This document shows, piece after piece, positions 1-61,109 of a DNA stretch of 64,000 nucleotides (positions are counted from its first letter, which is position 1; each line of letters opens with the position of its first letter). Both the position numbers and the translations under genes were made by a program. The stretch comes from Escherichia coli (GTDB lineage Bacteria; Pseudomonadota; Gammaproteobacteria; Enterobacterales; Enterobacteriaceae): the NCBI RefSeq assembly GCF_003334315.1, contig NZ_QOWR01000011.1. One strand, given 5' to 3'. Below the pieces are notes generated by a model. The model searched no databases. It was not told the origin of the DNA and saw only the letters and a program-made list of their open reading frames with translations.

Positions 1-1190
<1,190 letters not shown>

Positions 1191-27421: not shown

Positions 27422-28521
27422 ATGAAATTTACCGTAGAACGTGAGCATTTATTAAAACCGCTACAACAGGTGAGCGGTCCGTTAGGTGGTCGTCCTACGC
27501 TACCGATTCTCGGTAATCTGCTGTTACAGGTTGCTGACGGTACGTTGTCGCTGACCGGTACTGATCTCGAGATGGAAATGGTGGCACGTGTTGCGCTGGT
27601 TCAGCCACACGAGCCAGGAGCGACGACCGTTCCGGCGCGCAAATTCTTTGATATCTGCCGTGGTCTGCCTGAAGGCGCGGAAATTGCCGTGCAGCTGGAA
27701 GGTGAACGGATGCTGGTACGCTCCGGGCGTAGCCGTTTTTCGCTGTCTACCCTGCCAGCGGCGGATTTCCCGAACCTCGATGACTGGCAGAGTGAAGTCG
27801 AATTTACCCTGCCGCAGGCAACGATGAAGCGTCTGATTGAAGCGACCCAGTTTTCTATGGCGCATCAGGACGTTCGCTATTACTTAAATGGTATGCTGTT
27901 TGAAACCGAAGGTGAAGAACTGCGCACCGTGGCAACCGACGGCCACCGTCTGGCGGTCTGTTCAATGCCAATTGGTCAATCTTTGCCAAGCCATTCGGTG
28001 ATCGTACCGCGTAAAGGCGTGATTGAACTGATGCGTATGCTCGACGGCGGCGACAATCCGCTGCGCGTACAGATTGGCAGCAACAACATTCGCGCCCACG
28101 TTGGCGACTTTATCTTCACCTCCAAACTGGTGGATGGTCGCTTCCCGGATTATCGCCGCGTTCTGCCGAAGAACCCGGACAAACATCTGGAAGCTGGCTG
28201 CGATCTGCTCAAGCAGGCGTTTGCTCGCGCGGCGATTCTCTCTAACGAGAAATTCCGCGGCGTACGTCTTTATGTCAGCGAAAACCAGCTGAAAATCACC
28301 GCCAACAACCCGGAACAGGAAGAAGCGGAAGAGATCCTCGACGTTACCTATAGCGGTGCGGAGATGGAAATCGGCTTCAACGTCAGTTATGTGCTGGATG
28401 TTCTGAACGCGCTGAAATGCGAAAACGTCCGCATGATGCTGACCGATTCGGTTTCCAGCGTGCAGATTGAAGATGCGGCCAGCCAGAGCGCGGCTTATGT
28501 TGTCATGCCAATGAGACTGTA

Positions 28522-28522
<1 letters not shown>
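27422..28522 (+). CDS. dnaN: DNA polymerase III beta sliding clamp
   Basis: 366-aa [20 protein letters not shown]...; conserved dnaA-dnaN-recF order. Confidence 0.95.
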
Positions 28523-32038
<3,516 letters not shown>

Positions 32039-34582: not shown

Positions 34583-35272
34583 ATGACTCTCAATAAAACC
34601 GATCGCATTGTCATTACGCTGGGTAAACAGATCGTTCACGGCAAATACGTGCCAGGCTCGCCGCTTCCGGCTGAGGCGGAACTCTGTGAGGAGTTTGCAA
34701 CCTCGCGCAACATCATCCGTGAGGTGTTCCGTTCGCTGATGGCGAAGCGGCTGATTGAAATGAAACGTTATCGCGGGGCGTTTGTGGCACCGCGTAACCA
34801 GTGGAATTACCTCGACACTGACGTACTGCAATGGGTGCTGGAAAATGACTACGACCCACGGCTTATCAGTGCCATGAGCGAAGTGCGAAATCTGGTGGAA
34901 CCGGCGATTGCCCGTTGGGCAGCAGAGCGCGCGACTTCCAGCGATCTGGCGCAGATTGAATCGGCGCTGAACGAGATGATTGCCAACAATCAGGACCGCG
35001 AAGCGTTTAACGAAGCGGATATTCGCTACCACGAGGCGGTGCTGCAGTCGGTGCATAACCCGGTGTTACAGCAACTTAGCATTGCGATCAGTTCGCTGCA
35101 GCGGGCGGTTTTTGAACGAACCTGGATGGGCGATGAGGCCAACATGCCGCAAACGCTCCAGGAACATAAGGCGCTGTTCGATGCGATACGACATCAGGAC
35201 GGCGATGCGGCAGAGCAGGCGGCGCTTACCATGATCGCCAGCTCGACACGAAGGTTAAAGGAAATCACATGA
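34583..35272 (+). CDS. dgoR: GntR/FadR-family repressor of the galactonate operon
   Basis: 229-aa ORF with N-terminal winged-HTH and FadR-type C-terminal domain. Confidence 0.9.
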   Translation: MTLNKTDRIVITLGKQIVHGKYVPGSPLPAEAELCEEFATSRNIIREVFRSLMAKRLIEMKRYRGAFVAPRNQWNYLDTDVLQWVLENDYDPRLISAMSEVRNLVEPAIARWAAERATSSDLAQIESALNEMIANNQDREAFNEADIRYHEAVLQSVHNPVLQQLSIAISSLQRAVFERTWMGDEANMPQTLQEHKALFDAIRHQDGDAAEQAALTMIASSTRRLKEIT

Positions 35273-36147
35273 CAGCTCGCTACATCGCAATTGACTGGGG
35301 ATCGACCAATCTGCGCGCCTGGCTTTATCAGGGCGACCACTGCCTGGAGAGCAGGCAATCAGAAGCAGGCGTCACGCGCCTGAACGGAAAATCTCCGGCT
35401 GCGGTGTTAGCAGAAGTCACGACCGACTGGCGTGAAGAGAAAACGCCAGTGGTAATGGCAGGAATGGTTGGCAGCAACGTCGGCTGGAAAGTTGCACCGT
35501 ATTTATCTGTTCCTGCCTGTTTTTCGTCTATTGGCGAACAATTAACGTCAGTTGGCGACAATATCTGGATTATTCCCGGATTATGCGTCTCTCATGACGA
35601 TAACCACAATGTGATGCGCGGCGAAGAAACACAATTGATCGGCGCGCGAACTCTGGCTCCTTCCTCTCTTTATGTTATGCCCGGTACGCATTGCAAATGG
35701 GTGCAGGCCGATAGCCAGCAAATCAACGATTTTCGCACCGTGATGACCGGTGAATTACATCATTTACTGTTAAATCACTCATTGATTGGCGCAGGTTTGC
35801 CGCCGCAGGAAAACTCTGCCGATGCCTTCGCGGCTGGCCTTGAGCGCGGCCTTAATGCGCCCGCCATATTGCCGCAGCTTTTTGAAGTTCGCGCCTCGCA
35901 TGTGCTGGGAACACTTCCCCGCGAACAGGTCAGCGAATTTCTCTCTGGTTTGTTGATTGGCGCAGAGGTTGCCAGTATGCGCGACTATGTGACCCATCAA
36001 CACGCCATCACCCTTGTCGCCGGAACATCGCTGACCGCGCGCTACCAGCAAGCCTTTCAGGCGATGGGTTGCGACGTGACGGCGGTGGCGGGCGACACGG
36101 CATTTCAGGCTGGTATAAGGAGCATCGCTCATGCAGTGGCAAACTAA
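35269..36147 (+). CDS. dgoK: 2-dehydro-3-deoxygalactonokinase
   Basis: 292-aa ORF; 4-bp overlap with the dgoR stop. Confidence 0.88.
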   Translation: MTARYIAIDWGSTNLRAWLYQGDHCLESRQSEAGVTRLNGKSPAAVLAEVTTDWREEKTPVVMAGMVGSNVGWKVAPYLSVPACFSSIGEQLTSVGDNIWIIPGLCVSHDDNHNVMRGEETQLIGARTLAPSSLYVMPGTHCKWVQADSQQINDFRTVMTGELHHLLLNHSLIGAGLPPQENSADAFAAGLERGLNAPAILPQLFEVRASHVLGTLPREQVSEFLSGLLIGAEVASMRDYVTHQHAITLVAGTSLTARYQQAFQAMGCDVTAVAGDTAFQAGIRSIAHAVAN

Positions 36148-36748
36148 ACTTCCGCTGATCGCCATTTTGCGCGGCATTAAGCCCGACGAGGCGCTGGCGC
36201 ATGTTGGCGCGGTGATTGACGCCGGGTTCGACGCGGTTGAAATCCCGCTGAATTCCCCACAATGGGAGCAAAGCATTCCCGCCATCGTTGATGCGTATGG
36301 CGACAAGGCGTTGATTGGCGCAGGTACGGTACTGAAACCTGAACAGGTCGATGCGCTCGCCAGGATGGGCTGTCAGCTCATCGTTACGCCCAATATCCAT
36401 AGTGAAGTGATCCGCCGTGCGGTGGGCTACGGCATGACCGTCTGCCCCGGCTGCGCGACGGCGACCGAAGCCTTTACCGCGCTCGAAGCGGGCGCGCAGG
36501 CGCTGAAAATATTTCCGTCATCGGCTTTTGGTCCGCAATACATCAAAGCGTTAAAAGCGGTATTGCCATCGGACATCGCAGTCTTTGCCGTTGGCGGCGT
36601 GACGCCAGAAAACCTGGCGCAGTGGATAGACGCAGGTTGTGCTGGGGCGGGCTTAGGCAGCGATCTCTATCGCGCCGGGCAGTCCGTAGAACGCACCGCG
36701 CAGCAGGCAGCAGCATTTGTTAAGGCGTATCGAGAGGCAGTGCAATGA
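36131..36748 (+). CDS. dgoA: 2-dehydro-3-deoxy-6-phosphogalactonate aldolase
   Basis: 205-aa ORF, KDPG-aldolase family; overlaps the dgoK 3' end by 17 bp. Confidence 0.88.
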
Positions 36749-37893
36749 AAATCACCAAAATTACCACGTATCGTTTACCTCCCCGCTGGATGTTCCTGAA
36801 AATTGAAACCGATGAAGGCGTGGTCGGCTGGGGCGAGCCAGTGATTGAAGGCCGCGCCCGCACGGTGGAAGCGGCAGTTCACGAGCTGAGCGACTATTTG
36901 ATTGGTCAGGATCCATCGCGCATCAACGACTTATGGCAAGTGATGTATCGCGCCGGATTTTATCGTGGCGGTCCAATCCTGATGAGCGCCATCGCCGGGA
37001 TCGACCAGGCGTTATGGGATATCAAAGGCAAAGTGCTGAATGCGCCGGTCTGGCAACTGATGGGCGGCCTGGTTCGCGACAAAATTAAAGCCTACAGTTG
37101 GGTCGGCGGCGATCGTCCGGCGGATGTTATCGACGGCATTAAAACGCTACGCGAAATCGGCTTCGATACCTTTAAACTGAACGGTTGTGAAGAACTGGGG
37201 CTAATTGATAACTCCCGCGCGGTAGATGCGGCAGTCAACACCGTGGCACAAATTCGTGAAGCTTTTGGCAATCAGATTGAGTTTGGTCTTGATTTCCACG
37301 GTCGCGTCAGCGCGCCGATGGCGAAAGTGCTGATTAAAGAACTGGAGCCGTATCGCCCACTGTTTATTGAAGAGCCGGTGCTGGCAGAACAAGCCGAATA
37401 CTACCCGAAACTGGCGGCACAAACGCATATTCCGCTGGCGGCGGGTGAGCGCATGTTCTCACGCTTCGATTTTAAACGCGTGCTGGAGGCGGGCGGTATT
37501 TCGATTCTGCAACCGGATCTCTCCCACGCGGGCGGTATTACCGAATGCTACAAAATTGCCGGAATGGCAGAAGCCTATGATGTGACCCTTGCGCCGCACT
37601 GTCCGCTCGGACCGATTGCACTGGCGGCTTGTCTGCATATCGACTTTGTTTCCTATAACGCGGTACTTCAGGAACAAAGTATGGGCATTCATTACAACAA
37701 AGGCGCGGAGTTACTCGACTTTGTGAAAAACAAAGAAGACTTCAGCATGGTTGGCGGCTTCTTTAAACCGTTAACGAAACCGGGCTTAGGCGTGGAAATC
37801 GACGAAGCTAAAGTTATTGAGTTCAGTAAAAATGCCCCGGACTGGCGTAATCCGCTCTGGCGTCATGAAGATAACAGCGTAGCAGAGTGGTAA
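36745..37893 (+). CDS. dgoD: D-galactonate dehydratase (enolase superfamily)
   Basis: 382-aa [35 protein letters not shown]... Confidence 0.92.
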
Positions 37894-38012
37894 TTCCTGC
37901 CACGTAAGCCCCTCATCGGGCACTAAAACAGCAATACAAAAATATAACCCTCTGTAAATTACAGGGCATGGTGAGCGGCTTCGCTATGCCCAAAATCTGG
38001 AGAAAGCTCGCT

Positions 38013-39305
38013 ATGGATATCCCCGTTAATGCAGCAAAGCCGGGGCGTCGGCGTTATCTGACGCTGGTGATGATCTTTATTACGGTGGTCATTTGTTATG
38101 TTGACCGCGCTAACCTGGCCGTGGCTTCCGCCCATATTCAGGAAGAGTTCGGCATTACGAAAGCGGAAATGGGCTATGTATTTTCGGCCTTCGCCTGGCT
38201 TTATACGCTATGCCAGATCCCCGGCGGTTGGTTTTTAGATCGCGTAGGTTCTCGCGTGACTTATTTTATTGCGATATTTGGTTGGTCAGTGGCGACTTTA
38301 TTCCAGGGCTTTGCCACGGGATTAATGTCATTAATTGGTCTGCGTGCGATAACCGGTATTTTCGAAGCGCCCGCTTTCCCGACCAATAACCGGATGGTGA
38401 CCAGCTGGTTCCCGGAACATGAACGCGCTTCCGCCGTTGGTTTTTATACGTCTGGTCAGTTTGTCGGTCTGGCGTTTTTGACTCCGCTGCTGATCTGGAT
38501 TCAGGAGATGTTGAGCTGGCACTGGGTGTTCATTGTCACTGGTGGTATCGGCATTATCTGGTCGCTGATTTGGTTTAAGGTTTATCAGCCGCCGCGCCTG
38601 ACCAAAGGTATCAGCAAAGCTGAACTGGATTACATTCGTGATGGCGGCGGTCTGGTGGATGGTGATGCGCCGGTGAAAAAAGAGGCACGTCAGCCGTTAA
38701 CAGCCAAAGACTGGAAGCTGGTGTTCCATCGTAAACTGATCGGCGTTTATCTTGGGCAATTTGCGGTGGCTTCTACACTGTGGTTTTTCTTAACCTGGTT
38801 CCCGAACTATTTAACCCAGGAAAAAGGAATCACGGCGCTGAAAGCAGGCTTTATGACCACGGTGCCATTCCTCGCGGCGTTTGTCGGCGTCCTGCTCTCT
38901 GGCTGGGTCGCGGATCTGCTGGTACGTAAGGGCTTTTCACTGGGCTTTGCGCGTAAAACGCCGATTATCTGCGGCTTGCTGATCTCCACCTGCATTATGG
39001 GCGCTAACTACACTAACGATCCGATGATGATTATGTGCCTGATGGCGCTGGCATTCTTCGGTAACGGTTTTGCTTCGATTACCTGGTCGCTGGTCTCTTC
39101 TCTGGCACCGATGCGCCTGATTGGTTTAACCGGCGGCGTGTTTAACTTCGCCGGTGGTCTGGGCGGCATCACCGTTCCGCTGGTGGTGGGGTACCTGGCG
39201 CAGGGTTACGGTTTCGCACCTGCACTGGTTTATATCTCCGCCGTCGCGTTGATTGGCGCGCTCTCTTACATCCTGCTGGTGGGCGATGTGAAGCGCGTTG
39301 GCTAA
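38013..39305 (+). CDS. dgoT: D-galactonate:H+ symporter (MFS, anion:cation symporter family)
   Basis: 430 aa from internal Met ([22 protein letters not shown]...); the ORF-track start 37968 is an extension. Confidence 0.88.
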
Positions 39306-40366
39306 TCTTTCAACTGTGGAATATGCGCCATACCACTGCGCATAATCCACTTTCTTAAAGCCGGTGCGGTCAGGCATCGGCTTTTTACTATCTTGCCGAA
39401 GAGTTTTAAACGCAGTTTGCGGGTGGCGCGCCAGTAAGCGGTATTGAGCTTCTCTGGCTGCTTCAGTAACACCGCACGCAGAATGTCTGCGCTATCCAGC
39501 GCATAGCTAATCCCCTCCAGCGAACTGGCGCTGATAAATCCTGCCGCTTCGCCAATCAGAAAGGCGTTGTCCTTACCGCAGACAAAATCCTGCCAGCGTG
39601 AGGGAAACAGCACCGTGCATTTTTCGCTTTTCACCGCCTTACCAAACTGGAACTGAAAGGCGCTCATTTTCTCTTTCAGCGTCGTGAAACGCGTCTGACC
39701 GTCTTTCATTGGATAAGCACCGCCAAAGATAAAATAACCGTCTTTGCTGATACTCCATGAATAACAGTTAGTTATCGAATTATCAAAGATGCAGGAGTAG
39801 AACGGCACCGGATGTTTCTCCGCGAACCACTGCTGGATAGCGACATATTTACGGATTTGATGATCCGGGTAGAGATGTCGCCGCACCATCGAGTTTGCGC
39901 CATCGGCACCGACCAGATAGCGGGCGGTAATATGTTGCTCCCAGCCGTCTGCACGAAAAATGACATGCCATTTATCATCCTCACGCCAGATTTTTCGGCA
40001 CAGGCTATCGTGATAAACCTCAACGCTGGTGGGGATCAGCGATTTCATCCACAAGTCGAAAGCATGGCGATTAATATTGATATAGCTTCGCTGGTAGTTA
40101 CGCGTGAGCGATGCGGCGACGTCGACAGTTTTGACGCTGAAAATCTGCGGGTTGGCGATCACATCGACAGGAAGCGTCAGTCCATCGCGAATAAAAGATC
40201 GCTGCGCGTCCGGTGCCAGCAGACCGCCGCAAGGTTTGCTGAAACCTTCAGTACCACACTGGTGCTTTTTATCCAGCGCGATCACCTGCATTTTGCCTGC
40301 TAATTTTCGCGCCAACGCCGATCCTGCCGGGCCGATGCCAATAATCGCCACGTCGAAATGTTCCAT
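39302..40366 (-). CDS. cbrA: FAD-dependent oxidoreductase, colicin E2 tolerance protein CbrA
   Basis: 354 aa from internal Met; Rossmann FAD motif [14 protein letters not shown]. Confidence 0.85.
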
Positions 40367-40412
40367 CTTTTCACTCACATTCATCACGATGGCAAAAGAC
40401 TATTGTCTGAAA

Positions 40413-40428
40413 GTGAAGTCCTTGTGAA
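40413..40428 (-). promoter_or_regulatory. cre-tag (CreB binding direct repeat) upstream of cbrA
   Basis: Minus strand reads TTCACaaggacTTCAC, about 47 bp upstream of the cbrA ATG. Confidence 0.65.
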
Positions 40429-40466
40429 GTATGATGGCGGGACCCGTTTTGTATCAGGACCGCGCC

Positions 40467-41681
40467 ATGAAACAGATAACCTTTGCTCCCCGTAATCACC
40501 TGCTCACCAATACCAATACCTGGACGCCCGACAGCCAGTGGCTGGTATTTGACGTGCGTCCTTCTGGCGCGTCGTTTACCGGAGAGAGCATTGAGCGTGT
40601 GAATATCCATACCGGCGAGGTCGAGGTTATCTATCGCGCGTCACAGGGCGCACACGTCGGCGTGGTGACCGTTCATCCGAAGTCAGAGAAGTATGTCTTC
40701 ATCCACGGCCCGGAAAATCCTGATGAAACATGGCATTACGACTTCCATCATCGGCGCGGAGTGATTGTTGAAGGCGGCAAGATGAGTAACCTTGATGCGA
40801 TGGATATTACCGCGCCGTATACGCCTGGAGCGCTGCGCGGCGGCAGCCATGTGCATGTCTTTAGCCCGAACGGTGAAAGGGTGAGCTTTACCTATAACGA
40901 CCATGTAATGCATCAACTCGATCCGGCGCTGGATTTGCGAAACGTCGGTGTTGCTGCACCGTTTGGCCCGGTCAATGTACAAAAGCAGCATCCGCGTGAG
41001 TACAGCGGTAGCCACTGGTGCGTGCTGGTGAGTAAAACCACGCCCACGCCGCAGCCAGGCAGTGATGAAATCAATCGTGCTTATGAAGAAGGATGGGTAG
41101 GAAATCACACGCTGGCGTTTATTGGCGACACACTTTCGCCAAAGGGCGAGAAAGTGCCGGAGCTGTTTATCGTTGAGTTACCGCAAGATGAAGCTGGCTG
41201 GAAAGCGGCAGGTGATGCGCCGTTAAGTGGAACGGAAACCACCCTGCCCGCGCCACCGCGCGGCGTCGTGCAGCGACGTTTAACCTTTACCCACCATCGG
41301 GCTTATCCGGGGTTAGTCAACGTCCCGCGCCACTGGGTGCGCTGTAATCCGCAGGGTACGCAAATCGCGTTTTTAATGCGTGATGATAACGGCATTGTGC
41401 AACTATGGCTTATCTCGCCACAGGGCGGCGAGCCGCGCCAGTTAACCCATAACAAAACGGATATTCAGTCTGCATTTAACTGGCATCCATCAGGAGAATG
41501 GTTGGGCTTTGTGCTGGATAATCGAATTGCTTGTGCCCATGCGCAAAGCGGCGAGGTTGAGTATTTAACCGAAAACCACGCCAATCCGCCTTCTGCGGAT
41601 GCCGTGGTCTTCTCACCGGATGGTCAATGGCTGGCGTGGATGGAAGGTGGCCAGCTGTGGATCACCGAAACTGATCGCTAA
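40467..41681 (+). CDS. yidR: Uncharacterized beta-propeller-like protein YidR
   Basis: ORF MKQITFAPRNHLLTNTNTWTPDSQWLVFDVRP...; start ambiguous (ATGs at 40431/40434 also in frame); 40467 chosen for its better RBS context. Confidence 0.7.
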   Translation: MKQITFAPRNHLLTNTNTWTPDSQWLVFDVRPSGASFTGESIERVNIHTGEVEVIYRASQGAHVGVVTVHPKSEKYVFIHGPENPDETWHYDFHHRRGVIVEGGKMSNLDAMDITAPYTPGALRGGSHVHVFSPNGERVSFTYNDHVMHQLDPALDLRNVGVAAPFGPVNVQKQHPREYSGSHWCVLVSKTTPTPQPGSDEINRAYEEGWVGNHTLAFIGDTLSPKGEKVPELFIVELPQDEAGWKAAGDAPLSGTETTLPAPPRGVVQRRLTFTHHRAYPGLVNVPRHWVRCNPQGTQIAFLMRDDNGIVQLWLISPQGGEPRQLTHNKTDIQSAFNWHPSGEWLGFVLDNRIACAHAQSGEVEYLTENHANPPSADAVVFSPDGQWLAWMEGGQLWITETDR

Positions 41682-41682
41682 A

Positions 41683-42015
41683 TCAGTTATCAGGCATTCT
41701 GGCCGGTGGAATAACCGCATTGGTGGCTTGCGCGTTGGCTTCGCTTTTTTCAACGCGTGAGCGCACCGAGCTGTCTTTGCGGAACACATCCCACGGCAGT
41801 AAAAGCGTGTCCATCACAGCGGTAAACGGCATATCGAGAATCGCCAGCGACTTAGTGCCCCAGTTGGTTTCATCGTCGCCAATCATGGTGGCGCTGGCGC
41901 GGGTGCCGGGATACGTTCCTTCTTTCCCCCCGGTATGGGACATCACGCTGGAGCATCCTCCGAGTAATGTCATTCCGCTGCATATCATGAACGCTAACAA
42001 CACATTTCTTATCAT
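41683..42015 (-). CDS. yidQ: Small lipoprotein YidQ
   Basis: 110 aa from internal Met with lipobox (MIRNVLLAFMICSGMTLLGGCSS). Confidence 0.75.
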   Translation of the reverse strand: MIRNVLLAFMICSGMTLLGGCSSVMSHTGGKEGTYPGTRASATMIGDDETNWGTKSLAILDMPFTAVMDTLLLPWDVFRKDSSVRSRVEKSEANAQATNAVIPPARMPDN

Positions 42016-42188
42016 AATAAATTCATCTGTTGATCGTGGGTGTTGGCCTGATGAGTTATAGCGATCCCTTGCTGAAAATAACATCATCATTACGTCGCTC
42101 TGTGGCGGCAATCGCACTTTAACGTTTCGTGCTGCCCCCTCAGTCTATGCAATAGACCATAAACTGCAAAAAAAAGTCCGCTGATAAG

Positions 42189-42218
42189 GCTTGAAAAGTT
42201 CATTTCCAGACCCATTTT
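42189..42218 (+). promoter_or_regulatory. sigma32 (heat-shock) promoter of ibpAB
   Basis: CTTGAAA (42189-42195), 14-bp spacer, CCCATTTT (42210-42217); matches sigma32 consensus CTTGAAA-N13-15-CCCCATNT. Confidence 0.75.
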
Positions 42219-42320
42219 TACATCGTAGCCGATGAGGACGCGCCTGATGGGTGTTCTGGCTACCTGACCTGTCCATTGTGGAAGGTCTTACATTCTCGCT
42301 GATTTCAGGAGCTATTGATT

Positions 42321-42734
42321 ATGCGTAACTTTGATTTATCCCCGCTTTACCGTTCTGCTATTGGATTTGACCGTTTGTTTAACCACTTAGAAAACAACCA
42401 GAGCCAGAGTAATGGCGGCTACCCTCCGTATAACGTTGAACTGGTAGACGAAAACCATTACCGCATTGCTATCGCTGTGGCTGGTTTTGCTGAGAGCGAA
42501 CTGGAAATTACCGCCCAGGATAATCTGCTGGTGGTGAAAGGTGCTCACGCCGACGAACAAAAAGAGCGCACCTATCTGTACCAGGGCATCGCTGAACGCA
42601 ACTTTGAACGCAAATTCCAGTTAGCTGAGAACATTCATGTTCGTGGGGCTAACCTGGTAAATGGTTTGCTGTATATCGATCTCGAACGCGTGATTCCGGA
42701 AGCGAAAAAACCGCGCCGTATCGAAATCAACTAA
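42321..42734 (+). CDS. ibpA: Small heat-shock protein IbpA (alpha-crystallin family)
   Basis: 137 aa [24 protein letters not shown]...; alpha-crystallin domain. Confidence 0.93.
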
Positions 42735-42845
42735 TTCCCTAAGGCCGCCTGGCGCGGCCTGACATCTCCATGCTCGCCGTCAGGGAGCATATGCGAATCT
42801 TCGGATTTGCAGGTACTTACTCGCTTCTTAGAAGGAGAAATGACT

Positions 42846-43274
42846 ATGCGTAACTTCGATTTATCCCCACTGATGCGTCAATGGATCGGTTTTGACAAAC
42901 TGGCCAACGCACTGCAAAACGCCGGTGAAAGCCAGAGCTTCCCGCCGTACAACATTGAGAAAAGCGACGATAACCACTACCGCATTACCCTTGCGCTGGC
43001 AGGTTTCCGTCAGGAAGATTTAGAGATTCAACTGGAAGGTACGCGCCTGAGCGTAAAAGGCACGCCGGAGCAGCCAAAAGAAGAGAAAAAATGGCTGCAT
43101 CAAGGGCTTATGAATCAGCCATTTAGCCTGAGCTTTACGCTGGCTGAAAATATGGAAGTCTCTGGCGCAACCTTCGTAAACGGTTTACTGCATATTGATT
43201 TAATTCGTAATGAGCCTGAACCCATCGCAGCGCAGCGTATCGCTATCAGCGAACGTCCCGCGTTAAATAGCTAA
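42846..43274 (+). CDS. ibpB: Small heat-shock protein IbpB
   Basis: 142 aa from ATG 42846 ([24 protein letters not shown]...); paralog of ibpA; good SD (aggag) upstream. Confidence 0.92.
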
Positions 43275-43288
43275 CTAGCTATTCTCTT

Positions 43289-43316
43289 TGCCCCGCCATT
43301 CTGGTGGGGCTTTTTT
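43289..43316 (+). terminator. Rho-independent terminator of ibpAB
   Basis: gccccgccattctggtggggcttttttt. Confidence 0.8.
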
Positions 43317-43469
43317 TGTCTTACTTACTCAACAATGCGTTAAATTTCGACTGTTTAAGATATTTCGGCACGTTCTTTCCCGTGATAATGTGCGCTATAA
43401 GGCAAATCTGCTTCACCGATTCAGCCATAATCCGTAGCAATTAAAATGTTATCTCAAGAGAAATGGACG

Positions 43470-45131
43470 ATGAGTGATATAGCATTAACGGTCAGTATTC
43501 TGGCTTTGGTGGCAGTCGTCGGTTTGTTTATCGGCAACGTCAAATTTCGCGGCATAGGATTAGGTATTGGCGGCGTGCTGTTTGGTGGGATCATCGTCGG
43601 CCATTTTGTTTCTCAGGCGGGGATGACATTAAGTAGCGATATGCTGCATGTTATTCAGGAATTTGGCCTGATCCTGTTCGTTTATACCATCGGGATTCAG
43701 GTAGGGCCGGGCTTCTTTGCCTCATTGCGCGTCTCCGGATTACGCCTCAACCTGTTTGCTGTTCTGATCGTCATCATCGGTGGTCTGGTTACCGCCATCC
43801 TGCATAAACTGTTTGATATTCCACTGCCGGTAGTGCTGGGGATTTTCTCCGGTGCGGTTACCAATACGCCAGCGCTGGGGGCAGGGCAGCAGATTTTGCG
43901 CGACCTGGGTACACCAATGGAAATGGTCGATCAGATGGGGATGAGTTACGCGATGGCGTATCCATTCGGCATTTGCGGGATTTTGTTCACCATGTGGATG
44001 TTGCGGGTTATTTTCCGCGTCAATGTCGAGACAGAAGCTCAGCAGCACGAGTCTTCACGCACCAATGGCGGCGCGCTGATCAAGACTATCAATATTCGCG
44101 TTGAGAACCCTAACCTGCATGATTTAGCCATTAAAGATGTACCGATTCTCAACGGCGACAAAATTATCTGCTCGCGTCTGAAACGCGAAGAAACCCTAAA
44201 AGTTCCTTCGCCAGATACCATTATCCAACTGGGCGATTTGCTGCATCTGGTGGGTCAGCCAGCGGATTTACATAATGCGCAACTGGTGATTGGTCAGGAG
44301 GTCGATACCTCGCTGTCTACGAAAGGCACTGATTTGCGCGTCGAGCGTGTGGTGGTCACCAATGAAAACGTGCTCGGAAAACGTATTCGCGACCTGCACT
44401 TTAAAGAACGCTATGACGTTGTTATCTCGCGCCTGAACCGTGCCGGGGTCGAACTGGTCGCCAGTGGCGATATCAGCCTGCAGTTCGGCGATATCCTCAA
44501 TCTGGTGGGGCGTCCGTCCGCAATTGATGCCGTTGCCAATGTGCTGGGGAATGCGCAGCAAAAACTGCAACAGGTTCAGATGCTGCCAGTGTTTATTGGC
44601 ATCGGGCTTGGCGTATTGTTAGGTTCTATTCCCGTCTTTGTGCCTGGGTTCCCGGCCGCGTTGAAACTGGGGCTGGCGGGCGGTCCGCTGATTATGGCGT
44701 TGATCCTCGGGCGTATCGGCAGTATCGGCAAGCTGTACTGGTTTATGCCGCCAAGCGCCAACCTCGCGCTGCGGGAACTGGGGATCGTGCTGTTCCTCTC
44801 GGTCGTTGGTCTGAAATCTGGTGGGGATTTTGTGAATACCCTGGTCAATGGCGAAGGGCTAAGCTGGATTGGTTATGGTGCCCTGATCACCGCCGTTCCG
44901 CTGATTACTGTTGGCATTCTGGCGCGGATGTTAGCCAAAATGAATTACCTGACCATGTGCGGGATGCTGGCAGGTTCCATGACCGATCCTCCGGCGCTGG
45001 CGTTTGCTAATAATCTTCATCCAACCAGTGGTGCGGCGGCGCTCTCTTACGCCACTGTCTATCCGTTAGTGATGTTTCTGCGAATTATCACCCCCCAATT
45101 ACTGGCGGTGCTCTTCTGGAGTATCGGTTAA
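43470..45131 (+). CDS. yidE: Putative transporter YidE (AAE family, duplicated membrane domains with central TrkA-C/RCK_C domains)
   Basis: 553 aa from internal Met ([20 protein letters not shown]...); two hydrophobic halves flanking a soluble middle. Confidence 0.82.
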
Positions 45132-45844
45132 CTCTTTTCCGGGTGGAGTCGCCGTAAATGGTACTCCACCTGGTATTCGCTGGCATTTCTGAACATCACT
45201 GAATAATTCAAAAACTCCCCGCTCTCGCTATATGACAACGAGGTGATCCGCAGCAGTGGCGTGTGTTCCGCTACCTTCATTTGCCGCGCCAGCAGTCTAT
45301 CGGCGAGCACTGGCGTCAGGCTTTCATAATTACCGCCAATCAAAATCCCGCACTCTTGTTCAATATATTCAAACTTCGACCCTTCCAGATGTTGCAGCGA
45401 AAGATTACGGAACAGTTTTACCGGCATATAGCTGTCTTCCAGCATCAGCGGTTTCCCTTCCACAAAACGAACGCGACGGGAGAAGTAGATCTGCTCGTTG
45501 ATTTGAATCCGTAACTGGCTGGCAATGGCCGGAGGCGCAGGCATGATTTCAAAAATCAGCACCTGGCTGGTGACCGTTTTTCCCTGCCGTTTTAACACCT
45601 CCACCAGTCCGGTCAGGCTGGCGGTTTGATGCAGCACATCTTTGCGCACCAGGTAAGTGCCGCTGCCGTGGCGGCGGACCACCAGCCCCCACGCTACCAG
45701 CAGGTCAATCGCTTTACGGATGGTCATCCGGGATACTGCAAATTCTTCCGCCAACTTTTTTTCACCGGGAAGAAGGCTGTTTAGCGTGAAATCTGCGGAA
45801 TTAAGTCGAATTCTTAACCGCTCCGCAATGCTTTTGTAGATCAT
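45128..45844 (-). CDS. yidP: GntR-family transcriptional regulator (HutC subfamily, UTRA effector domain)
   Basis: 238 aa from internal Met ([16 protein letters not shown]...), wHTH motif [22 protein letters not shown]; ORF-track upstream extension rejected. Confidence 0.82.
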
Positions 45845-46139
45845 CTCTAGATCTCTTTTTTGCCTGCAAGCCCGGGTAATGCGCCCACAAGTTCTGCTTA
45901 ATCGATTGAAAAAACATCTTTTTTTTAAAGATGTGTTCGATGCTGTGTACCAGTGCTCACAGATGTCTACTTTTTCGCGAAAACGTAGATCTCTACCGCC
46001 CAACGAAAAGCATGAAAGCGATCACGAATCCCATTGGGTCGTCATGTTCTGTCGATCGCATCTTCCTATCCTCGCTCCAGGCCTGCCGCATAACCAATCA
46101 GGCTTCCTACTTACAGAATTGAGAAAAGAGGATGTGGAA

Positions 46140-49490
<3,351 letters not shown>

Positions 49491-49626
49491 AACCTGAACT
49501 TAACAGAAAACAATCCGTTCAGGGATACGACGTTTGTATTTTAAGAATCTGACTGCCTGACCCGACGCATTTTACCTCTCCCTATATTCATGCGTCCGGG
49601 ACATAAACATAAATAAGGGCTATGAG

Positions 49627-51342
49627 ATGAATTCGTTACAAATCTTGAGTTTTGTCGGTTTTACGCTGCTGGTGGCGGTGATCACCTGGTGGAAGGTCCG
49701 CAAAACAGATACCGGATCGCAACAAGGCTATTTTCTTGCCGGACGTTCACTAAAAGCGCCGGTTATTGCCGCTTCGTTAATGCTAACCAACCTTTCCACG
49801 GAACAACTGGTCGGCCTTTCCGGGCAGGCCTACAAAAGCGGCATGTCGGTGATGGGCTGGGAAGTGACTTCAGCGGTGACGCTGATCTTCCTCGCGCTAA
49901 TCTTTTTACCGCGCTATCTGAAGCGCGGCATTGCCACCATCCCCGATTTTCTGGAGGAACGTTATGATAAAACGACGCGTATTATCATCGACTTCTGCTT
50001 CCTAATTGCCACCGGCGTCTGCTTTCTGCCGATTGTTCTCTACTCCGGCGCGTTGGCGCTCAACAGCCTGTTTCACGTCGGGGAATCGCTACAGATTTCT
50101 CACGGTGCGGCTATCTGGCTACTGGTAATTTTGCTTGGTCTGGCGGGAATTTTGTATGCGGTGATCGGCGGACTGCGCGCAATGGCAGTGGCGGACTCCA
50201 TCAACGGTATTGGGCTGGTTATCGGCGGGTTGATGGTGCCGGTATTTGGCCTGATCGCGATGGGCAAGGGCAGCTTTATGCAGGGCATTGAGCAACTCAC
50301 CACCGTTCACGCCGAGAAATTAAACTCAATCGGTGGCCCGACCGTTCCCTTGCCGATTGGCGCGGCATTTACCGGTTTGATTCTGGTGAACACCTTTTAC
50401 TGGTGTACAAATCAGGGCATCGTGCAACGCACGCTGGCGTCAAAAAGCCTGGCGGAAGGGCAAAAGGGGGCGCTGTTAACGGCGGTGCTGAAAATGCTCG
50501 ACCCGCTGGTACTGGTGCTGCCAGGGTTGATTGCGTTTCATCTGTATCAGGATTTACCGAAAGCCGACATGGCCTACCCGACGCTGGTCAATAACGTTCT
50601 GCCAGTGCCAATGGTGGGTTTCTTCGGCGCGGTGTTATTTGGTGCGGTGATCAGTACCTTCAACGGCTTTCTGAATAGCGCCAGTACGTTATTCAGTATG
50701 GGTATTTACCGTCGCATCATTAACCAGAATGCCGAGCCGCAGCAGCTGGTCACCGTCGGGCGCAAATTTGGTTTCTTTATCGCTATCGTTTCGGTGCTGG
50801 TCGCGCCGTGGATCGCCAACGCGCCGCAGGGGCTGTATAGCTGGATGAAACAGCTCAACGGCATTTACAACGTGCCGCTGGTTACCATCATCATTATGGG
50901 CTTTTTCTTCCCGCGCATCCCGGCGCTGGCGGCAAAAGTAGCGATGGGGATTGGCATAATCAGCTACATCACCATCAACTACCTGGTGAAGTTCGACTTC
51001 CATTTCCTCTATGTGCTGGCCTGTACGTTCTGCATCAACGTGGTCGTGATGCTGGTGATCGGTTTTATCAAACCGCGCGCCACGCCGTTCACCTTCAAAG
51101 ATGCGTTTGCGGTGGACATGAAACCGTGGAAAAACGTCAAGATCGCGTCAATTGGCATCCTGTTCGCGATGATTGGCGTCTATGCCGGGCTGGCTGAATT
51201 CGGCGGCTACGGTACGCGCTGGTTAGCGATGATCAGTTATTTCATTGCCGCCGTAGTGATTGTCTACCTGATTTTTGACAGCTGGCGGCATCGTCACGAC
51301 CCAGCCGTAACCTTTACTCCCGACGGGAAGGATAGCCTATGA
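49627..51342 (+). CDS. yidK: Sodium:solute symporter (SSS family) transporter
   Basis: 571-aa polytopic ORF; co-directional with and overlapping yidJ. Confidence 0.85.
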   Translation: MNSLQILSFVGFTLLVAVITWWKVRKTDTGSQQGYFLAGRSLKAPVIAASLMLTNLSTEQLVGLSGQAYKSGMSVMGWEVTSAVTLIFLALIFLPRYLKRGIATIPDFLEERYDKTTRIIIDFCFLIATGVCFLPIVLYSGALALNSLFHVGESLQISHGAAIWLLVILLGLAGILYAVIGGLRAMAVADSINGIGLVIGGLMVPVFGLIAMGKGSFMQGIEQLTTVHAEKLNSIGGPTVPLPIGAAFTGLILVNTFYWCTNQGIVQRTLASKSLAEGQKGALLTAVLKMLDPLVLVLPGLIAFHLYQDLPKADMAYPTLVNNVLPVPMVGFFGAVLFGAVISTFNGFLNSASTLFSMGIYRRIINQNAEPQQLVTVGRKFGFFIAIVSVLVAPWIANAPQGLYSWMKQLNGIYNVPLVTIIIMGFFFPRIPALAAKVAMGIGIISYITINYLVKFDFHFLYVLACTFCINVVVMLVIGFIKPRATPFTFKDAFAVDMKPWKNVKIASIGILFAMIGVYAGLAEFGGYGTRWLAMISYFIAAVVIVYLIFDSWRHRHDPAVTFTPDGKDSL

Positions 51343-52832
51343 AACGCCCCAATTTTCTGTTCGTCATGACCGATACCCAGGCCACCAATATGGTCGGTTG
51401 CTATAGCGGTAAACCGCTGAATACGCAAAATATTGATAGTCTGGCGGCGGAAGGTATTCGCTTTAATTCCGCCTACACCTGTTCACCGGTTTGTACGCCT
51501 GCACGGGCCGGACTATTTACCGGTATCTACGCTAACCAGTCCGGCCCGTGGACCAACAACGTCGCGCCAGGCAAAAACATCTCCACTATGGGGCGCTACT
51601 TTAAGGATGCCGGCTATCACACCTGTTACATCGGCAAATGGCATCTCGACGGTCATGACTATTTCGGCACTGGCGAGTGTCCGCCGGAGTGGGACGCTGA
51701 TTACTGGTTCGATGGGGCGAACTATCTTAGCGAACTGACGGAAAAAGAGATTAGCCTGTGGCGCAATGGCCTAAACAGCGTCGAAGATTTACAGGCGAAC
51801 CATATCGACGAAACCTTCACCTGGGCGCATCGTATCAGCAATCGGGCGGTGGATTTTCTGCAACAGCCTGCGCGCGCAGACGAGCCTTTCCTGATGGTGG
51901 TTTCGTATGATGAGCCGCATCACCCGTTCACCTGTCCGGTGGAGTATTTAGAGAAATACGCTGATTTTTACTACGAGCTGGGCGAGAAAGCACAGGATGA
52001 CCTGGCTAACAAACCGGAACATCACCGCTTATGGGCGCAGGCGATGCCATCGCCAGTCGGTGATGACGGGCTTTATCACCATCCGCTCTATTTTGCCTGT
52101 AATGACTTTGTTGATGACCAAATCGGACGGGTCATCAATGCCTTAACGCCAGAGCAACGTGAAAATACGTGGGTTATTTATACCTCCGATCACGGCGAAA
52201 TGATGGGCGCACATAAGCTGATCAGTAAAGGGGCGGCGATGTATGACGACATCACCCGCATTCCGCTGATCATCCGTTCGCCGCAAGGGGAGCGGCGACA
52301 GGTCGATACGCCAGTCAGTCATATCGATTTACTGCCGACAATGATGGCGCTGGCAGATATTGAAAAACCAGAGATTCTGCCGGGGGAAAATATCCTTGCC
52401 GTGAAAGAGCCACGCGGCGTGATGGTGGAATTTAACCGCTACGAGATTGAGCATGACAGCTTTGGCGGTTTTATTCCGGTGCGTTGCTGGGTGACGGATG
52501 ACTTTAAACTGGTACTCAACCTCTTCACCAGTGATGAACTTTACGATCGCCGTAATGACCCAAATGAAATGCATAACCTGATCGATGATATCCGTTTTGC
52601 AGACGTTCGCAGCAAAATGCATGACGCCTTATTGGATTACATGGACAAAATTCGCGATCCGTTCCGCAGTTACCAATGGAGTCTGCGTCCGTGGCGTAAA
52701 GATGCACGGCCGCGCTGGATGGGGGCGTTTCGTCCACGTCCACAAGATGGCTATTCGCCAGTTGTACGCGACTATGACACCGGCCTACCGACACAAGGGG
52801 TGAAGGTGGAGGAGAAAAAACAGAAGTTCTGA
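51339..52832 (+). CDS. yidJ: Putative sulfatase (type I sulfatase family)
   Basis: 497-aa ORF with sulfatase signature region CSPVCTPARAGLFTG (C/S-x-P-x-R) near the N-terminus. Confidence 0.88.
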   Translation: MKRPNFLFVMTDTQATNMVGCYSGKPLNTQNIDSLAAEGIRFNSAYTCSPVCTPARAGLFTGIYANQSGPWTNNVAPGKNISTMGRYFKDAGYHTCYIGKWHLDGHDYFGTGECPPEWDADYWFDGANYLSELTEKEISLWRNGLNSVEDLQANHIDETFTWAHRISNRAVDFLQQPARADEPFLMVVSYDEPHHPFTCPVEYLEKYADFYYELGEKAQDDLANKPEHHRLWAQAMPSPVGDDGLYHHPLYFACNDFVDDQIGRVINALTPEQRENTWVIYTSDHGEMMGAHKLISKGAAMYDDITRIPLIIRSPQGERRQVDTPVSHIDLLPTMMALADIEKPEILPGENILAVKEPRGVMVEFNRYEIEHDSFGGFIPVRCWVTDDFKLVLNLFTSDELYDRRNDPNEMHNLIDDIRFADVRSKMHDALLDYMDKIRDPFRSYQWSLRPWRKDARPRWMGAFRPRPQDGYSPVVRDYDTGLPTQGVKVEEKKQKF

Positions 52833-52878
52833 CGATAATGTCCGCTGATGATCACCCGGCGGGCATTATTCAGGCTGC

Positions 52879-53328
52879 TTAAACCAGTGAACCGCCGGTC
52901 AGGAAGGAAAAGATAAGGAATATCAGCAAAATGCTGCACACGATGCCGATACCAAAAAGCAAGGTATGGAAAGCCAGCGTCCCGCCGCCAAAAACCAGCG
53001 CGCCGCGAATGCCCCAGCGATTTTCCTTACGCATACCGCCAATAAATGCGCAAAGTAGCGCAGCAATGGCCAGTGCGATACCGCTTTGATTGAGGATTTT
53101 ATCGACATCTACGTCCTCTTTTTTCTCCACGGTGGTAATTTTTTCGCCTTTTATTCCGGCGAGAAGACCTCTTTTAATTTCAGCCGTTTTGTCCGCCACG
53201 ATGCTTTCAAACGTTGGCGGTGGTGCGGAGAAAGGGCCGAATGAAAAGTGGATAATCCCCATCATTAAAGCGATGGCACCGAACAGCATGCCCAATGAAC
53301 TGATTTTATTTTGAGCTATGATACCCAT
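52879..53328 (-). CDS. yidI: Inner membrane protein YidI
   Basis: 149 aa from internal Met with strong SD (ggaggtcagATG); three predicted TM segments. Confidence 0.75.
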   Translation of the reverse strand: MGIIAQNKISSLGMLFGAIALMMGIIHFSFGPFSAPPPTFESIVADKTAEIKRGLLAGIKGEKITTVEKKEDVDVDKILNQSGIALAIAALLCAFIGGMRKENRWGIRGALVFGGGTLAFHTLLFGIGIVCSILLIFLIFSFLTGGSLV

Positions 53329-53435
53329 CTGACCTCCTTGTAGCGGATGGCAAAAGCATATCAGGAAACGGGCGGACGAAATTCTTAAAAAAACCGCTAA
53401 AGGTAGAGCGTTAGTGAAATTGCAAAGGAGCAACA

Positions 53436-53783
53436 ATGAAAATTTCCCGCCTCGGAGAAGCGCCTGATTACCGCTTCTCGCTGGCTAATGAGCGTACTTT
53501 TCTGGCGTGGATCCGTACTGCACTAGGATTTCTGGCGGCGGGGGTTGGGCTTGATCAACTTGCGCCAGATTTCGCCACGCCCGTCATTCGCGAACTGCTG
53601 GCGTTGTTGTTGTGTCTGTTTTCCGGCGGGTTAGCGATGTATGGCTACTTGCGCTGGTTACGCAATGAAAAAGCGATGCGTCTGAAAGAGGACCTGCCCT
53701 ACACCAACAGCTTATTAATCATTAGCTTAATATTGATGGTCGTGGCGGTGATCGTTATGGGACTGGTGTTGTATGCCGGATAG
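53436..53783 (+). CDS. yidH: Inner membrane protein YidH (DUF202)
   Basis: 115-aa ORF with 3 TM segments. Confidence 0.8.
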   Translation: MKISRLGEAPDYRFSLANERTFLAWIRTALGFLAAGVGLDQLAPDFATPVIRELLALLLCLFSGGLAMYGYLRWLRNEKAMRLKEDLPYTNSLLIISLILMVVAVIVMGLVLYAG

Positions 53784-54135
53784 CCGCAAAGCCAGACGCA
53801 TTGCCGACCCAGGACTGCAGCCGGAGCGCACATCACTGGCGTGGTTTCGTACCATGCTGGGCTACGGCGCGTTGATGGCGTTGGCTATCAAACACAACTG
53901 GCACCAGGCGGGCATGTTATTCTGGATTTCGATTGGCATTCTCGCCATCGTGGCGCTGATCCTCTGGCACTACACCCGTAATCGCAATTTAATGGATGTC
54001 ACGAATAGCGATTTTTCCCAATTTCACGTAGTCCGTGACAAATTTTTGATCTCCCTCGCGGTGTTATCTCTCGCAATACTGTTTGCTGTAACGCATATAC
54101 ATCAACTTATCGTATTTATTGAGAGAGTCGCATGA
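53773..54135 (+). CDS. yidG: Inner membrane protein YidG
   Basis: 120-aa ORF overlapping the yidH end by 11 bp. Confidence 0.8.
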   Translation: MPDSRKARRIADPGLQPERTSLAWFRTMLGYGALMALAIKHNWHQAGMLFWISIGILAIVALILWHYTRNRNLMDVTNSDFSQFHVVRDKFLISLAVLSLAILFAVTHIHQLIVFIERVA

Positions 54136-54629: not shown

Positions 54630-54636
54630 CGTGCGC

Positions 54637-56100: not shown

Positions 56101-56190
56101 TTACTTCAGGTATTTCAGAACAGCATCAAGCAGTTGCAGTGCTGCAACAATGAGTTTGAGGATAAGAATGGCGATATCCACCAGGTTCAT
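56101..56190 (-). CDS. tisB: Type I toxin TisB (29-aa membrane peptide, SOS-induced)
   Basis: Minus-strand ORF translates exactly to MNLVDIAILILKLIVAALQLLDAVLKYLK*; SD caggag 7 nt upstream; not in the ORF track (too short). Confidence 0.92.
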   Translation of the reverse strand: MNLVDIAILILKLIVAALQLLDAVLKYLK

Positions 56191-59016: not shown

Positions 59017-59607
59017 ATGATCACCGTTGCCCTTATAGACGATCACCTCATCGTCCGCTCCGGCTTTGCGCAGCTGCTGGGGCTGGAACCTGATTTGCAG
59101 GTAGTTGCCGAGTTTGGTTCGGGGCGCGAGGCGCTGGCGGGGCTGCCGGGGCGCGGTGTGCAGGTGTGTATTTGCGATATCTCCATGCCCGATATCTCCG
59201 GTCTGGAGCTGCTAAGCCAGCTGCCGAAAGGTATGGCGACGATTATGCTCTCCGTTCACGACAGTCCTGCGCTGGTTGAGCAGGCGCTTAACGCGGGGGC
59301 ACGCGGCTTTCTTTCCAAACGCTGTAGCCCGGATGAACTCATTGCTGCGGTGCATACGGTTGCCACGGGCGGCTGTTATCTGACGCCGGATATTGCCATT
59401 AAACTGGCATCCGGTCGTCAGGACCCGCTAACCAAACGTGAACGCCAGGTGGCGGAAAAACTGGCGCAAGGAATGGCGGTGAAAGAGATTGCCGCCGAAC
59501 TGGGCTTGTCACCGAAAACGGTACACGTCCATCGCGCCAATCTGATGGAAAAACTGGGCGTCAGTAACGACGTAGAGCTGGCGCGCCGCATGTTTGATGG
59601 CTGGTGA
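59017..59607 (+). CDS. uhpA: Response regulator UhpA (NarL/FixJ family)
   Basis: 196-aa ORF; receiver domain plus LuxR-type HTH. Confidence 0.93.
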
Positions 59608-61109
59608 TGAAGACGTTGTTCTCCCGCTTAATTACCGTTATTGCCTGCTTTTTTATCTTCTCTGCCGCATGGTTTTGCCTGTGGAGTATCAGCCTGCATC
59701 TGGTTGAGCGCCCTGATATGGCGGTGCTGTTATTTCCGTTTGGTCTGCGTCTGGGGCTAATGCTGCAATGCCCGCGCGGATACTGGCCCGTATTGCTGGG
59801 CGCGGAGTGGCTGCTGATTTACTGGCTAACGCAGGCGGTCGGTTTAACCCATTTTCCGTTATTGATGATCGGTAGTTTACTGACGTTACTGCCCGTAGCG
59901 CTGATCTCGCGCTATCGCCATCAGCGTGACTGGCGCACCTTGCTGTTACAGGGGGCGGCGTTAACGGCGGCGGCGTTGTTGCAGTCGCTGCCCTGGCTTT
60001 GGCACGGCAAAGAGTCGTGGAATGCGCTGTTGCTGACTTTAACTGGCGGCCTGACGCTGGCCCCGATATGTCTGGTGTTCTGGCACTATCTCGCCAATAA
60101 CACCTGGCTGCCGCTCGGTCCGTCACTGGTTTCTCAGCCAATCAACTGGCGCGGGCGACATCTGGTCTGGTACTTGCTGCTGTTTGTTATCAGTCTCTGG
60201 CTCCAGTTGGGATTGCCGGACGAACTGTCGCGCTTTACGCCATTCTGTCTGGCGCTGCCGATTATCGCGCTGGCCTGGCACTATGGTTGGCAAGGGGCGC
60301 TGATTGCGACGTTGATGAACGCCATCGCGCTGATCGCCAGTCAAACCTGGCGCGATCATCCGGTGGATTTATTGCTCTCGCTGCTGGTGCAAAGTCTGAC
60401 AGGGTTGTTGCTTGGCGCTGGCATCCAGCGGTTGCGTGAACTTAACCAGTCGCTGCAAAAGGAACTGGCGCGCAATCAGCATCTGGCTGAACGGTTGCTG
60501 GAAACCGAAGAGAGCGTGCGCCGTGATGTGGCGCGTGAGCTGCATGATGATATCGGTCAGACCATCACTGCTATTCGTACTCAGGCGGGCATTGTTCAGC
60601 GGCTGGCGGCAGATAACGCCAGCGTGAAGCAGAGCGGGCAGCTCATCGAACAACTATCGCTGGGCGTTTACGACGCGGTGCGCCGTTTGTTGGGTCGGTT
60701 ACGTCCGCGCCAGTTGGATGATCTCACCCTGGAGCAGGCCATCCGCTCACTGATGCGGGAAATGGAGCTGGAAGGGCGCGGTATTGTCAGCCATCTCGAA
60801 TGGCGAATCGATGAATCAGCGTTAAGCGAAAACCAGCGCGTGACGCTGTTTCGTGTCTGCCAGGAAGGGCTGAACAACATTGTGAAACATGCTGATGCCA
60901 GCGCGGTCACCCTGCAAGGCTGGCAGCAGGATGAACGGTTGATGCTGGTTATTGAAGACGATGGCAGCGGTTTGCCGCCGGGTTCCGGGCAACAAGGTTT
61001 TGGCCTCACCGGAATGCGCGAGCGCGTAACGGCGCTGGGTGGCACATTACACATTTCCTGTCTGCACGGCACGCGTGTCAGCGTTTCTCTACCTCAACGC
61101 TATGTCTAA
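59607..61109 (+). CDS. uhpB: Sensor histidine kinase UhpB
   Basis: 500 aa from ATG 59607 (overlaps the uhpA stop, gGTGATGa); N-terminal multi-TM domain; H-box ELHDDIGQ. Confidence 0.92.

Follow-up and report, generated by a model that had tools for sequence, protein, structure and literature searches.

Introduction

Neighbouring genes on the same strand of the Escherichia coli chromosome frequently overlap or nearly touch: 707 of the 2,987 unidirectional pairs of strain K-12 (24%) have spacings between -8 and +6, -4 being the commonest value and -1 the next (PMC10666635). These two spacings generate the ATGA and the TAATG or TGATG junctions known from translationally coupled gene pairs (Huber et al. 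2019, 2023; Brown and Wade 2025), and reporter assays on five native E. coli ATGA pairs detected coupling in four of them, the exception being bioBF, which initiates de novo (PMC6728339). Coupling falls steeply over a few tens of nucleotides (nt; PMC10666635) and also declines with longer overlap, a synthetic system showing none at -25 nt (Brown and Wade review, PMC12548453). Here, we examine the overlapping gene junctions of a 64,000-nt stretch of E. coli DNA (contig NZ_QOWR01000011.1, hereafter the window), an ordinary segment of the chromosome extending from pstC to uhpT via dnaA. Eight same-strand pairs of the window have a geometry identical to that of the known coupling pairs, from which they show no structural difference, and with which they share a frequency equal to that of K-12 and, for the dgo operon, conservation across the Enterobacterales of the kind published for other overlaps; most of the upstream genes also appear to carry a Shine-Dalgarno (SD)-like motif at their 3' ends. 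Coupling is proposed for these pairs by analogy. It is very likely that the window as a whole displays ordinary operon packing, in which the short overlaps are coupled, the long ones are coupled weakly at best, the convergent ones are passive and the tisA/tisB overlap concerns only open reading frames (ORFs).

Two further classes of overlap have been described. Long co-directional overlaps fall several-fold more often in one phase (phase 1: -8, -11, -14, -17 and so on) and have been interpreted as remnants that evolution left behind when stop codons were lost (PMC10666635). Of the window's four long overlaps, yidH/yidG (-11), dgoK/dgoA (-17) and mdtL/yidZ (-26) belong to this commoner phase, whereas rnpA/yidD (-37) lies in the rarer one, its register being fixed by the single possible start codon of the yidD ORF. 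Among convergent genes, Lillo and Krakauer (2007, PMC2174442) counted 58 overlaps in E. coli and showed that the 4-bp ones consist of the four-base sequences CTAA, TTAA, CTAG and TTAG; with such an overlap, any terminator must sit within the coding sequence of the partner gene. The three convergent overlaps of the window all match this description, with CTAA or TTAA, and do not differ from it.

Overlapping junctions of the window

Gene coordinates were obtained by transferring the RefSeq annotation of matching records, made by the Prokaryotic Genome Annotation Pipeline (PGAP), onto the window, and each start and stop codon was checked. Among the 44 same-strand neighbour pairs, 12 overlap (negative spacing), which leaves space for neither a terminator nor a promoter between the two genes, eight of them in the short configurations, four as ATGA (-4) and four as TAATG or TGATG (-1), all read directly in the sequence. 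The four ATGA junctions, each a 4-bp overlap on the plus strand, join dgoR to dgoK (35269..35272, with a conserved AAGGA upstream), dgoA to dgoD (36745..36748, the DgoD equivalog model positions 1-382 aligning on residues 1-382), yidK to yidJ (51339..51342, with the SD sequence GGGAAGGA at -6.5 kcal/mol and sulfatase models aligning from residue 2) and yidG to yidF (54132..54135). The 1-bp overlaps, also on the plus strand, are those of pstC and pstA (TAATG, 298..302, overlapping at 300), where a strong SD-like GAGGGGG lies 6 nt upstream (-11.1 kcal/mol); dnaN and recF (TAATG, 28520..28524, overlapping at 28522), with a very weak SD (-2.7 kcal/mol) and a RecF model aligning from residue 3; glvBC and glvG (TAATG, 47754..47758, overlapping at 47756), with the SD GGAGG (-9.5 kcal/mol); and uhpA and uhpB (TGATG, 59605..59609, overlapping at 59607), with an SD energy of -1.8 kcal/mol. 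The SD duplex energies at the overlaps thus extend from -11.1 (pstA) to -1.8 kcal/mol (uhpB). The glvBC gene, encoding phosphotransferase system (PTS) components IIB and IIC, is intact (46140-47756, 538 aa), and its downstream partner glvG (47756-48570) is a frameshifted pseudogene. At the uhpA/uhpB junction (59604-59609), a GTG stands one codon 5' of the annotated uhpB ATG (GTGATG), and its use would give a spacing of -4 (GTGA) instead.

The four longer same-strand overlaps do not contain a shared stop/start codon of the form NTGA or TRATG. On the plus strand, yidG begins 11 bp before the end of yidH (53773..53783) and dgoA begins 17 bp before the end of dgoK (36131..36147), with a conserved TAAGGAG 7 nt upstream of the dgoA start and an aldolase model aligning from residue 1. 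On the minus strand, the 3' end of mdtL overlaps the 5' end of yidZ by 26 bp (16953..16978), with a weak SD (-3.0), and the 3' end of rnpA overlaps the 5' end of yidD by 37 bp (24891..24927). YidZ, a LysR-type regulator, is truncated here by a W78* mutation (TGG to TAG with respect to strain CP53; 16745-16747, minus strand), and the overlap of its gene with mdtL is intact. None of the junctions coincided with an RNA family in an Rfam scan.

An earlier note on this DNA had listed 14 overlapping junctions and assigned them to the interval 35269-54135. The annotation table and the sequences confirm that all 14 exist at the lengths given, 13 of them between annotated genes and one, tisA/tisB, as an overlap of ORFs, but that interval encloses only eight of them. 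The list was also incomplete: it had overlooked the 1-bp overlap of glvBC with glvG and the convergent 4-bp overlap of glvG with yidL.

The accumulation of spacings of exactly -4 or -1 is not random, since these values account for eight of the 23 same-strand pairs within -40 to +40, against 0.7 expected under a null in which every allowed spacing is equally likely (P = 2.3e-7). Pairs spaced between -8 and +6 make up 11 of 44 (25%) in the window against 24% genome-wide (binomial P = 0.48). The same-strand overlaps are therefore non-random and yet occur at the genome-wide rate, and there is nothing special to the window in this respect.

Conservation of the dgo junctions

Our cross-species census covered the junctions of the dgo genes, which belong to a single autoregulated operon (PMC12288454). 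One DgoA scan of species-representative genomes yielded 80 loci (79 across the Enterobacterales with DgoA 71-92% identical, and one short contaminant contig), in which the dgo orthologues were located with tblastn, the first in-frame stop was taken as the end of each gene and the codon aligned to the E. coli start as its beginning. The dgoR/dgoK junction is an ATGA (-4) in 68 of 68 loci, represented by 56 distinct junction sequences (48-mers), and dgoA/dgoD is likewise an ATGA in 75 of 75 loci, with 64 distinct 48-mers. Between dgoK and dgoA, 67 of the 75 loci show the -17 spacing, and a start codon is found at the aligned position in all 75. The exceptions are four Xenorhabdus loci (L039, L040, L053 and L061) with a spacing of -50, presumably derived from the loss of the usual dgoK stop, and four loci (L005, L014, L015 and L017) with apparent positive gaps that may be due to premature stops in dgoK or to its faulty assembly. 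The AAGGA preceding dgoK and the TAAGGAG preceding dgoA are nearly invariant across loci. As a control, the dgoD-dgoT spacer, non-overlapping in E. coli, varies from -7 to +389 across the same loci. Since the ATGA junctions remain constant while this spacer varies, the overlap geometry is held while the neighbouring spacer drifts.

Two loci recovered by the scan have unexpected labels. One (L083) is a 470-bp contig named 'Terrisporobacter mayombei' that matches E. coli dgoA at 98% identity, and the other (L062) is a 'Chryseobacterium sp.' contig carrying an enterobacterial-type dgo locus; both are probably contaminated or mislabelled entries of the genome collection.

Translational coupling and competing readings

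With a spacing of -4 or -1, a ribosome that ends translation of the upstream gene would already be positioned at the downstream start, where it could re-initiate, or else its passage could unfold the downstream ribosome-binding site (RBS); either event would tie synthesis of the downstream protein to that of the upstream one. The earlier note had taken the stop/start overlaps as signs of translational coupling. For the eight -4/-1 pairs this is reasonable by analogy with published cases, and coupling would be their best-supported reading, given their geometry and the behaviour of other E. coli pairs. The proposal becomes doubtful for the long overlaps, and it is contradicted for tisA/tisB (see below). 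The loss of coupling reported for long overlaps (PMC12548453) makes it doubtful for mdtL/yidZ (-26) and rnpA/yidD (-37) in particular, and genes that follow long overlaps more likely initiate independently, with weak coupling at best. The strong and conserved TAAGGAG suggests that dgoA probably initiates by itself. At the other extreme, recF and uhpB, which have almost no SD (-2.7 and -1.8 kcal/mol), would be the likeliest to depend on a ribosome arriving from upstream.

Several results weigh against coupling as the explanation of the short overlaps. Within the window, and with a small sample, the SD of genes downstream of overlaps is as strong as that of leading genes (median -5.4 versus -5.1 kcal/mol, P = 0.72) and the predicted RBS opening energy is alike as well (8.6 versus 6.4 kcal/mol, P = 0.43), so the sequence bears no mark of its own that a gene depends on the one upstream. 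Our literature search, which addressed dgo, dnaN-recF and rnpA-yidD, retrieved no direct coupling data for the pairs found here, and the 2025 coupling review (PMC12548453) contains nothing on pstC, recF, uhpB, rnpA or dgo. The invariance of ATGA across species could stem partly from the double coding constraint on these bases and not from selection for coupling. Finally, pstA, recF and uhpB have other possible starts within 2-6 codons, the use of which would change the spacing to between -4 and +14 (for pstA, an ATG at codon 3 would leave a gap of +5).

These alternative starts also bear on the reading of the overlaps as annotation artefacts, according to which wrongly chosen start codons conceal true ones located downstream and the genes do not overlap at all. 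Long overlaps in prokaryote annotations are indeed often mispredicted, as stated in PMC2478687 and exemplified in PMC2716372, and the earlier note had itself named reassigned starts as the result that could remove the overlaps. We listed all in-frame ATG, GTG and TTG codons near each downstream start and compared them with the first aligned residue of curated family models, and the overlaps remained standing. Ahead of codon 45, yidD offers no in-frame start besides the annotated ATG, and the alignment with the YidD model (TIGR00278) begins at residue 10, so the rnpA/yidD overlap is obligatory if YidD is made. Similarly, the Pfam domain DUF202 of YidG begins at residue 12 and the next in-frame start is codon 28, past that beginning, which means that the annotated start is needed. 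The alignments of YidZ with its family models begin at residues 1-7, and only a start at codon 20, within the LysR helix-turn-helix (HTH) region, would do away with the overlap; the next in-frame starts of dgoK, dgoD and yidF are as far in as codons 46, 16 and 60, respectively. For yidD, yidZ, yidG, dgoK, dgoA, dgoD and yidF, no alternative start keeps the conserved domain whole. The start codons of dgoK, dgoA and dgoD, moreover, stand at exactly the aligned position in 68-75 other species. An artefact of annotation is extremely unlikely on this evidence and is already largely ruled out here.

If the overlaps are real, they might nevertheless be neutral by-products of the loss and replacement of stop and start codons, without any role in expression, each gene using its own RBS. 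Models based on stop-codon mutation do yield much of the phase distribution of overlaps (PMC2174442; PMC10666635), and the equal SD strength and RBS accessibility of downstream and leading genes, the strong SD of dgoA, pstA and glvG and the de novo initiation of bioBF all agree with such an origin. Neutrality accords poorly, however, with the retention of ATGA in every one of the diverged dgo loci (68 of 68 and 75 of 75) while the adjoining spacer varies by hundreds of bases, and with the sharp genome-wide peak at -4 and -1 together with the coupling of four of the five pairs assayed with reporters. It would also require efficient independent initiation at recF and uhpB, which is improbable given their near lack of an SD. 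We thus regard a purely neutral origin as unlikely, and coupling at the short overlaps as the better account.

Convergent overlaps

Three convergent pairs of the window overlap by 4 bp, with their stop codons read directly on both strands: dgoT and cbrA (CTAA, 39302..39305), in which the TAA of dgoT meets the TAG of cbrA on the minus strand, yidE and yidP (TTAA, 45128..45131), and the pseudogene glvG and yidL (TTAA, 48567..48570). Two other convergent pairs nearly touch, yidR/yidQ (41679-41685) and yidF/emrD (54627-54639), with gaps of 1 and 7 bp. A TAA or TAG stop preceded by C or T is also a stop when read on the opposite strand, and a convergent gene without an earlier stop of its own then ends exactly 4 bp inside its neighbour. 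Twenty-six of the 65 window genes end in a tetramer that creates such an antisense stop, so the 4-bp register is easily reached by chance. Overlapping pairs make up 3 of 10 convergent pairs against approximately 8.5% in E. coli, an excess that is post hoc and marginal (P = 0.047), one of the three involving a pseudogene, and the comparison rate rests on our own estimate of about 680 convergent pairs in the species.

The dgo loci of other species allow this origin to be followed. cbrA is the convergent neighbour of dgoT in only six of about 69 dgoT-bearing loci, five of which have TTAA at -4 and one ATAA at -40, and the C-terminus of DgoT (VKRVG-stop) is identical with or without cbrA alongside. 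In the divergent case, from Pseudocitrobacter vendiensis (L006, 1-10615), dgoT ends in GGA TAA and not in GGY TAA, and cbrA reaches 40 nt into dgoT. With GGA as the last glycine codon, the tetramer is ATAA, so that the stop on the other strand vanishes and cbrA becomes 40 nt longer; this variant illustrates directly the mechanism of Lillo and Krakauer. As far as these sequences tell, the 4-bp convergent overlap is to be read as a passive consequence of stop-codon complementarity.

The earlier note had further claimed that the convergent overlaps of dgoT/cbrA and yidE/yidP imply interference between the 3' ends of the opposing transcripts. Given this geometry, the transcripts necessarily overlap, but an overlap of 4 bp does not entail interference. 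Our terminator scan found no excess of terminator-like sites in the window (17 versus 14.3 in shuffled sequence) and none at the convergent junctions, where RNA structure prediction gave nothing convincing either (fold z-scores from -1.9 to +0.6). At dgoT/cbrA there is neither a terminator-like site nor unusual structure (z = -0.4 and +0.6), and yidE/yidP shows modest hairpins that lack a T-tract (z = -1.75 and -1.25). Since the junctions lack terminator-like sites and unusual structure, the transcripts must enter the opposing gene.

Overlapping transcription of this kind has been reported for E. coli MG1655: at least half of 58 RNA-seq samples show it for 165 convergent pairs, one of which is cbrA-dgoT (PMC12288877). 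The pairs yidQ-yidR and yidX-yidA, also from this window, appear in the same list of convergent excludons, and the paper does not mention yidE-yidP. Termination driven by collision is likewise on record for convergent E. coli genes (bioRxiv 10.1101/2022.10.23.513370); the bidirectional collision terminators of Ju et al. (2019), in the summary given by that preprint, involve a type of hairpin that we did not find at dgoT/cbrA. One could thus imagine dgoT/cbrA and yidE/yidP to be functional excludons, in which run-through transcription lowers expression of the opposing gene, either because RNA polymerases collide or because RNase III cleaves the 3' ends where they are double-stranded. The absence of room for an intergenic terminator and of terminator-like sites at either junction fits this idea, as do the overlapping transcription of cbrA-dgoT and the documented collisions. 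Overlap of transcripts is nevertheless not interference, no reciprocal expression is reported for either pair, and yidE-yidP is not in the published list of overlapping pairs. The scarcity of cbrA beside dgoT among the Enterobacterales loci, the extension of the overlap to 40 bp by a wobble change, which fits a passive origin, and an enrichment of convergent overlaps that is only marginal make functional excludons distinctly unlikely at these junctions.

A more specific version would make cbrA-dgoT a working excludon in which dgo transcription, induced by D-galactonate, runs on into cbrA and lowers CbrA and, conversely, CreBC-driven transcription of cbrA dampens dgoT. If true, the use of sugar acids would be linked to colicin M tolerance. 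Such an arrangement is very unlikely, being disfavoured by a gene neighbourhood that lacks conservation and by an overlap register that appears to be passive; passive overlap of convergent stop codons remains our preferred reading of these pairs.

The tisA/tisB overlap

The remaining junction belongs to the type I toxin-antitoxin system tisAB/istR. According to published work, the tisA ORF is not translated, and translation of tisB proceeds on a processed mRNA by way of a ribosome standby site (PMC2826370; PMC5397157); tisA serves as the 5' untranslated region, as the location of the standby site and as the target of IstR-1. The window carries the same arrangement in intact form, with tisB (56101-56190, minus strand), a 37-codon tisA ORF (56187-56300, minus strand, 37 aa) that PGAP does not annotate, and a divergent istR adjoining them (56496-56625, plus strand, Rfam score of 150 bits). 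The TGA of tisA shares an ATGA with the start of tisB (56187..56190, minus strand). Since tisA is reported to be untranslated, this ATGA is an overlap of ORFs only; the idea of coupling does not apply to it, and the proposal made for this pair in the earlier note is contradicted by the literature.

Identity and further gene content of the window

The region 35269-54135 is 95-100% identical to thousands of complete E. coli chromosomes. The window can be matched to two records: positions 26014-64000 correspond to positions 1-37987 of NZ_CP033096.1 (strain CP53) with 3 mismatches, positions 13134-26013 to the end of the same record with 2 mismatches, and positions 1-13600 to NZ_CP123963.1 (strain L6-21) save for a 1-bp deletion and 3 mismatches. 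The gene order begins with pstCAB-phoU, bgl, yieLK, cbrCB, adeP, yieFE, yidZ-mdtL and tnaBAC, continues with mnmE-yidC-yidD-rnpA-rpmH, dnaA-dnaN-recF-gyrB, yidBA, dgoRKADT, cbrA, yidRQ and ibpAB, and ends with yidE, yidP, glv, yidL, yidKJ, yidI, yidHGF, emrD, tisB/istR, ilvBN and uhpABCT.

Several genes of the window are damaged or shortened. bglB (6038-7431) has lost one base in a G run at 7246-7249 (GGGG to GGG with respect to strain L6-21), and the resulting frameshift ends the ORF at 7276, leaving 412 aa against the normal 464. yidB (32278-32676) contains an in-frame stop at codon 25 and is a pseudogene in the matching RefSeq record. YidF (54132-54629, 165 aa), named 'radical SAM protein', covers only positions 160-245 of a 363-position anaerobic sulfatase maturase model and has no Pfam domain match; it looks like a fragment devoid of the radical-SAM core, encoded close to the sulfatase gene yidJ. 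Rfam elements located elsewhere in the window include the antisense RNA AsdA inside dnaA (26524-26604, minus strand), the small RNA (sRNA) ES036 after gyrB (32081-32123, minus strand) and the ROSE_2 thermometer before ibpA (42255-42327, plus strand).

Conclusions

The overlaps noticed in this DNA have been accurately observed and are non-random, and they represent textbook operon packing of E. coli at its genome-wide frequency, with nothing new in them. Their pattern, frequency and conservation, as well as their link to coupling, have been known for decades and measured across the whole genome in this species. The main value of the observation is to confirm that the annotation is correct, and little beyond that. 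The dgo locus does provide a clean comparative control, with an invariant ATGA beside a freely varying spacer, and the Pseudocitrobacter vendiensis locus shows how a single wobble-base change lengthens a convergent overlap from 4 to 40 bp.

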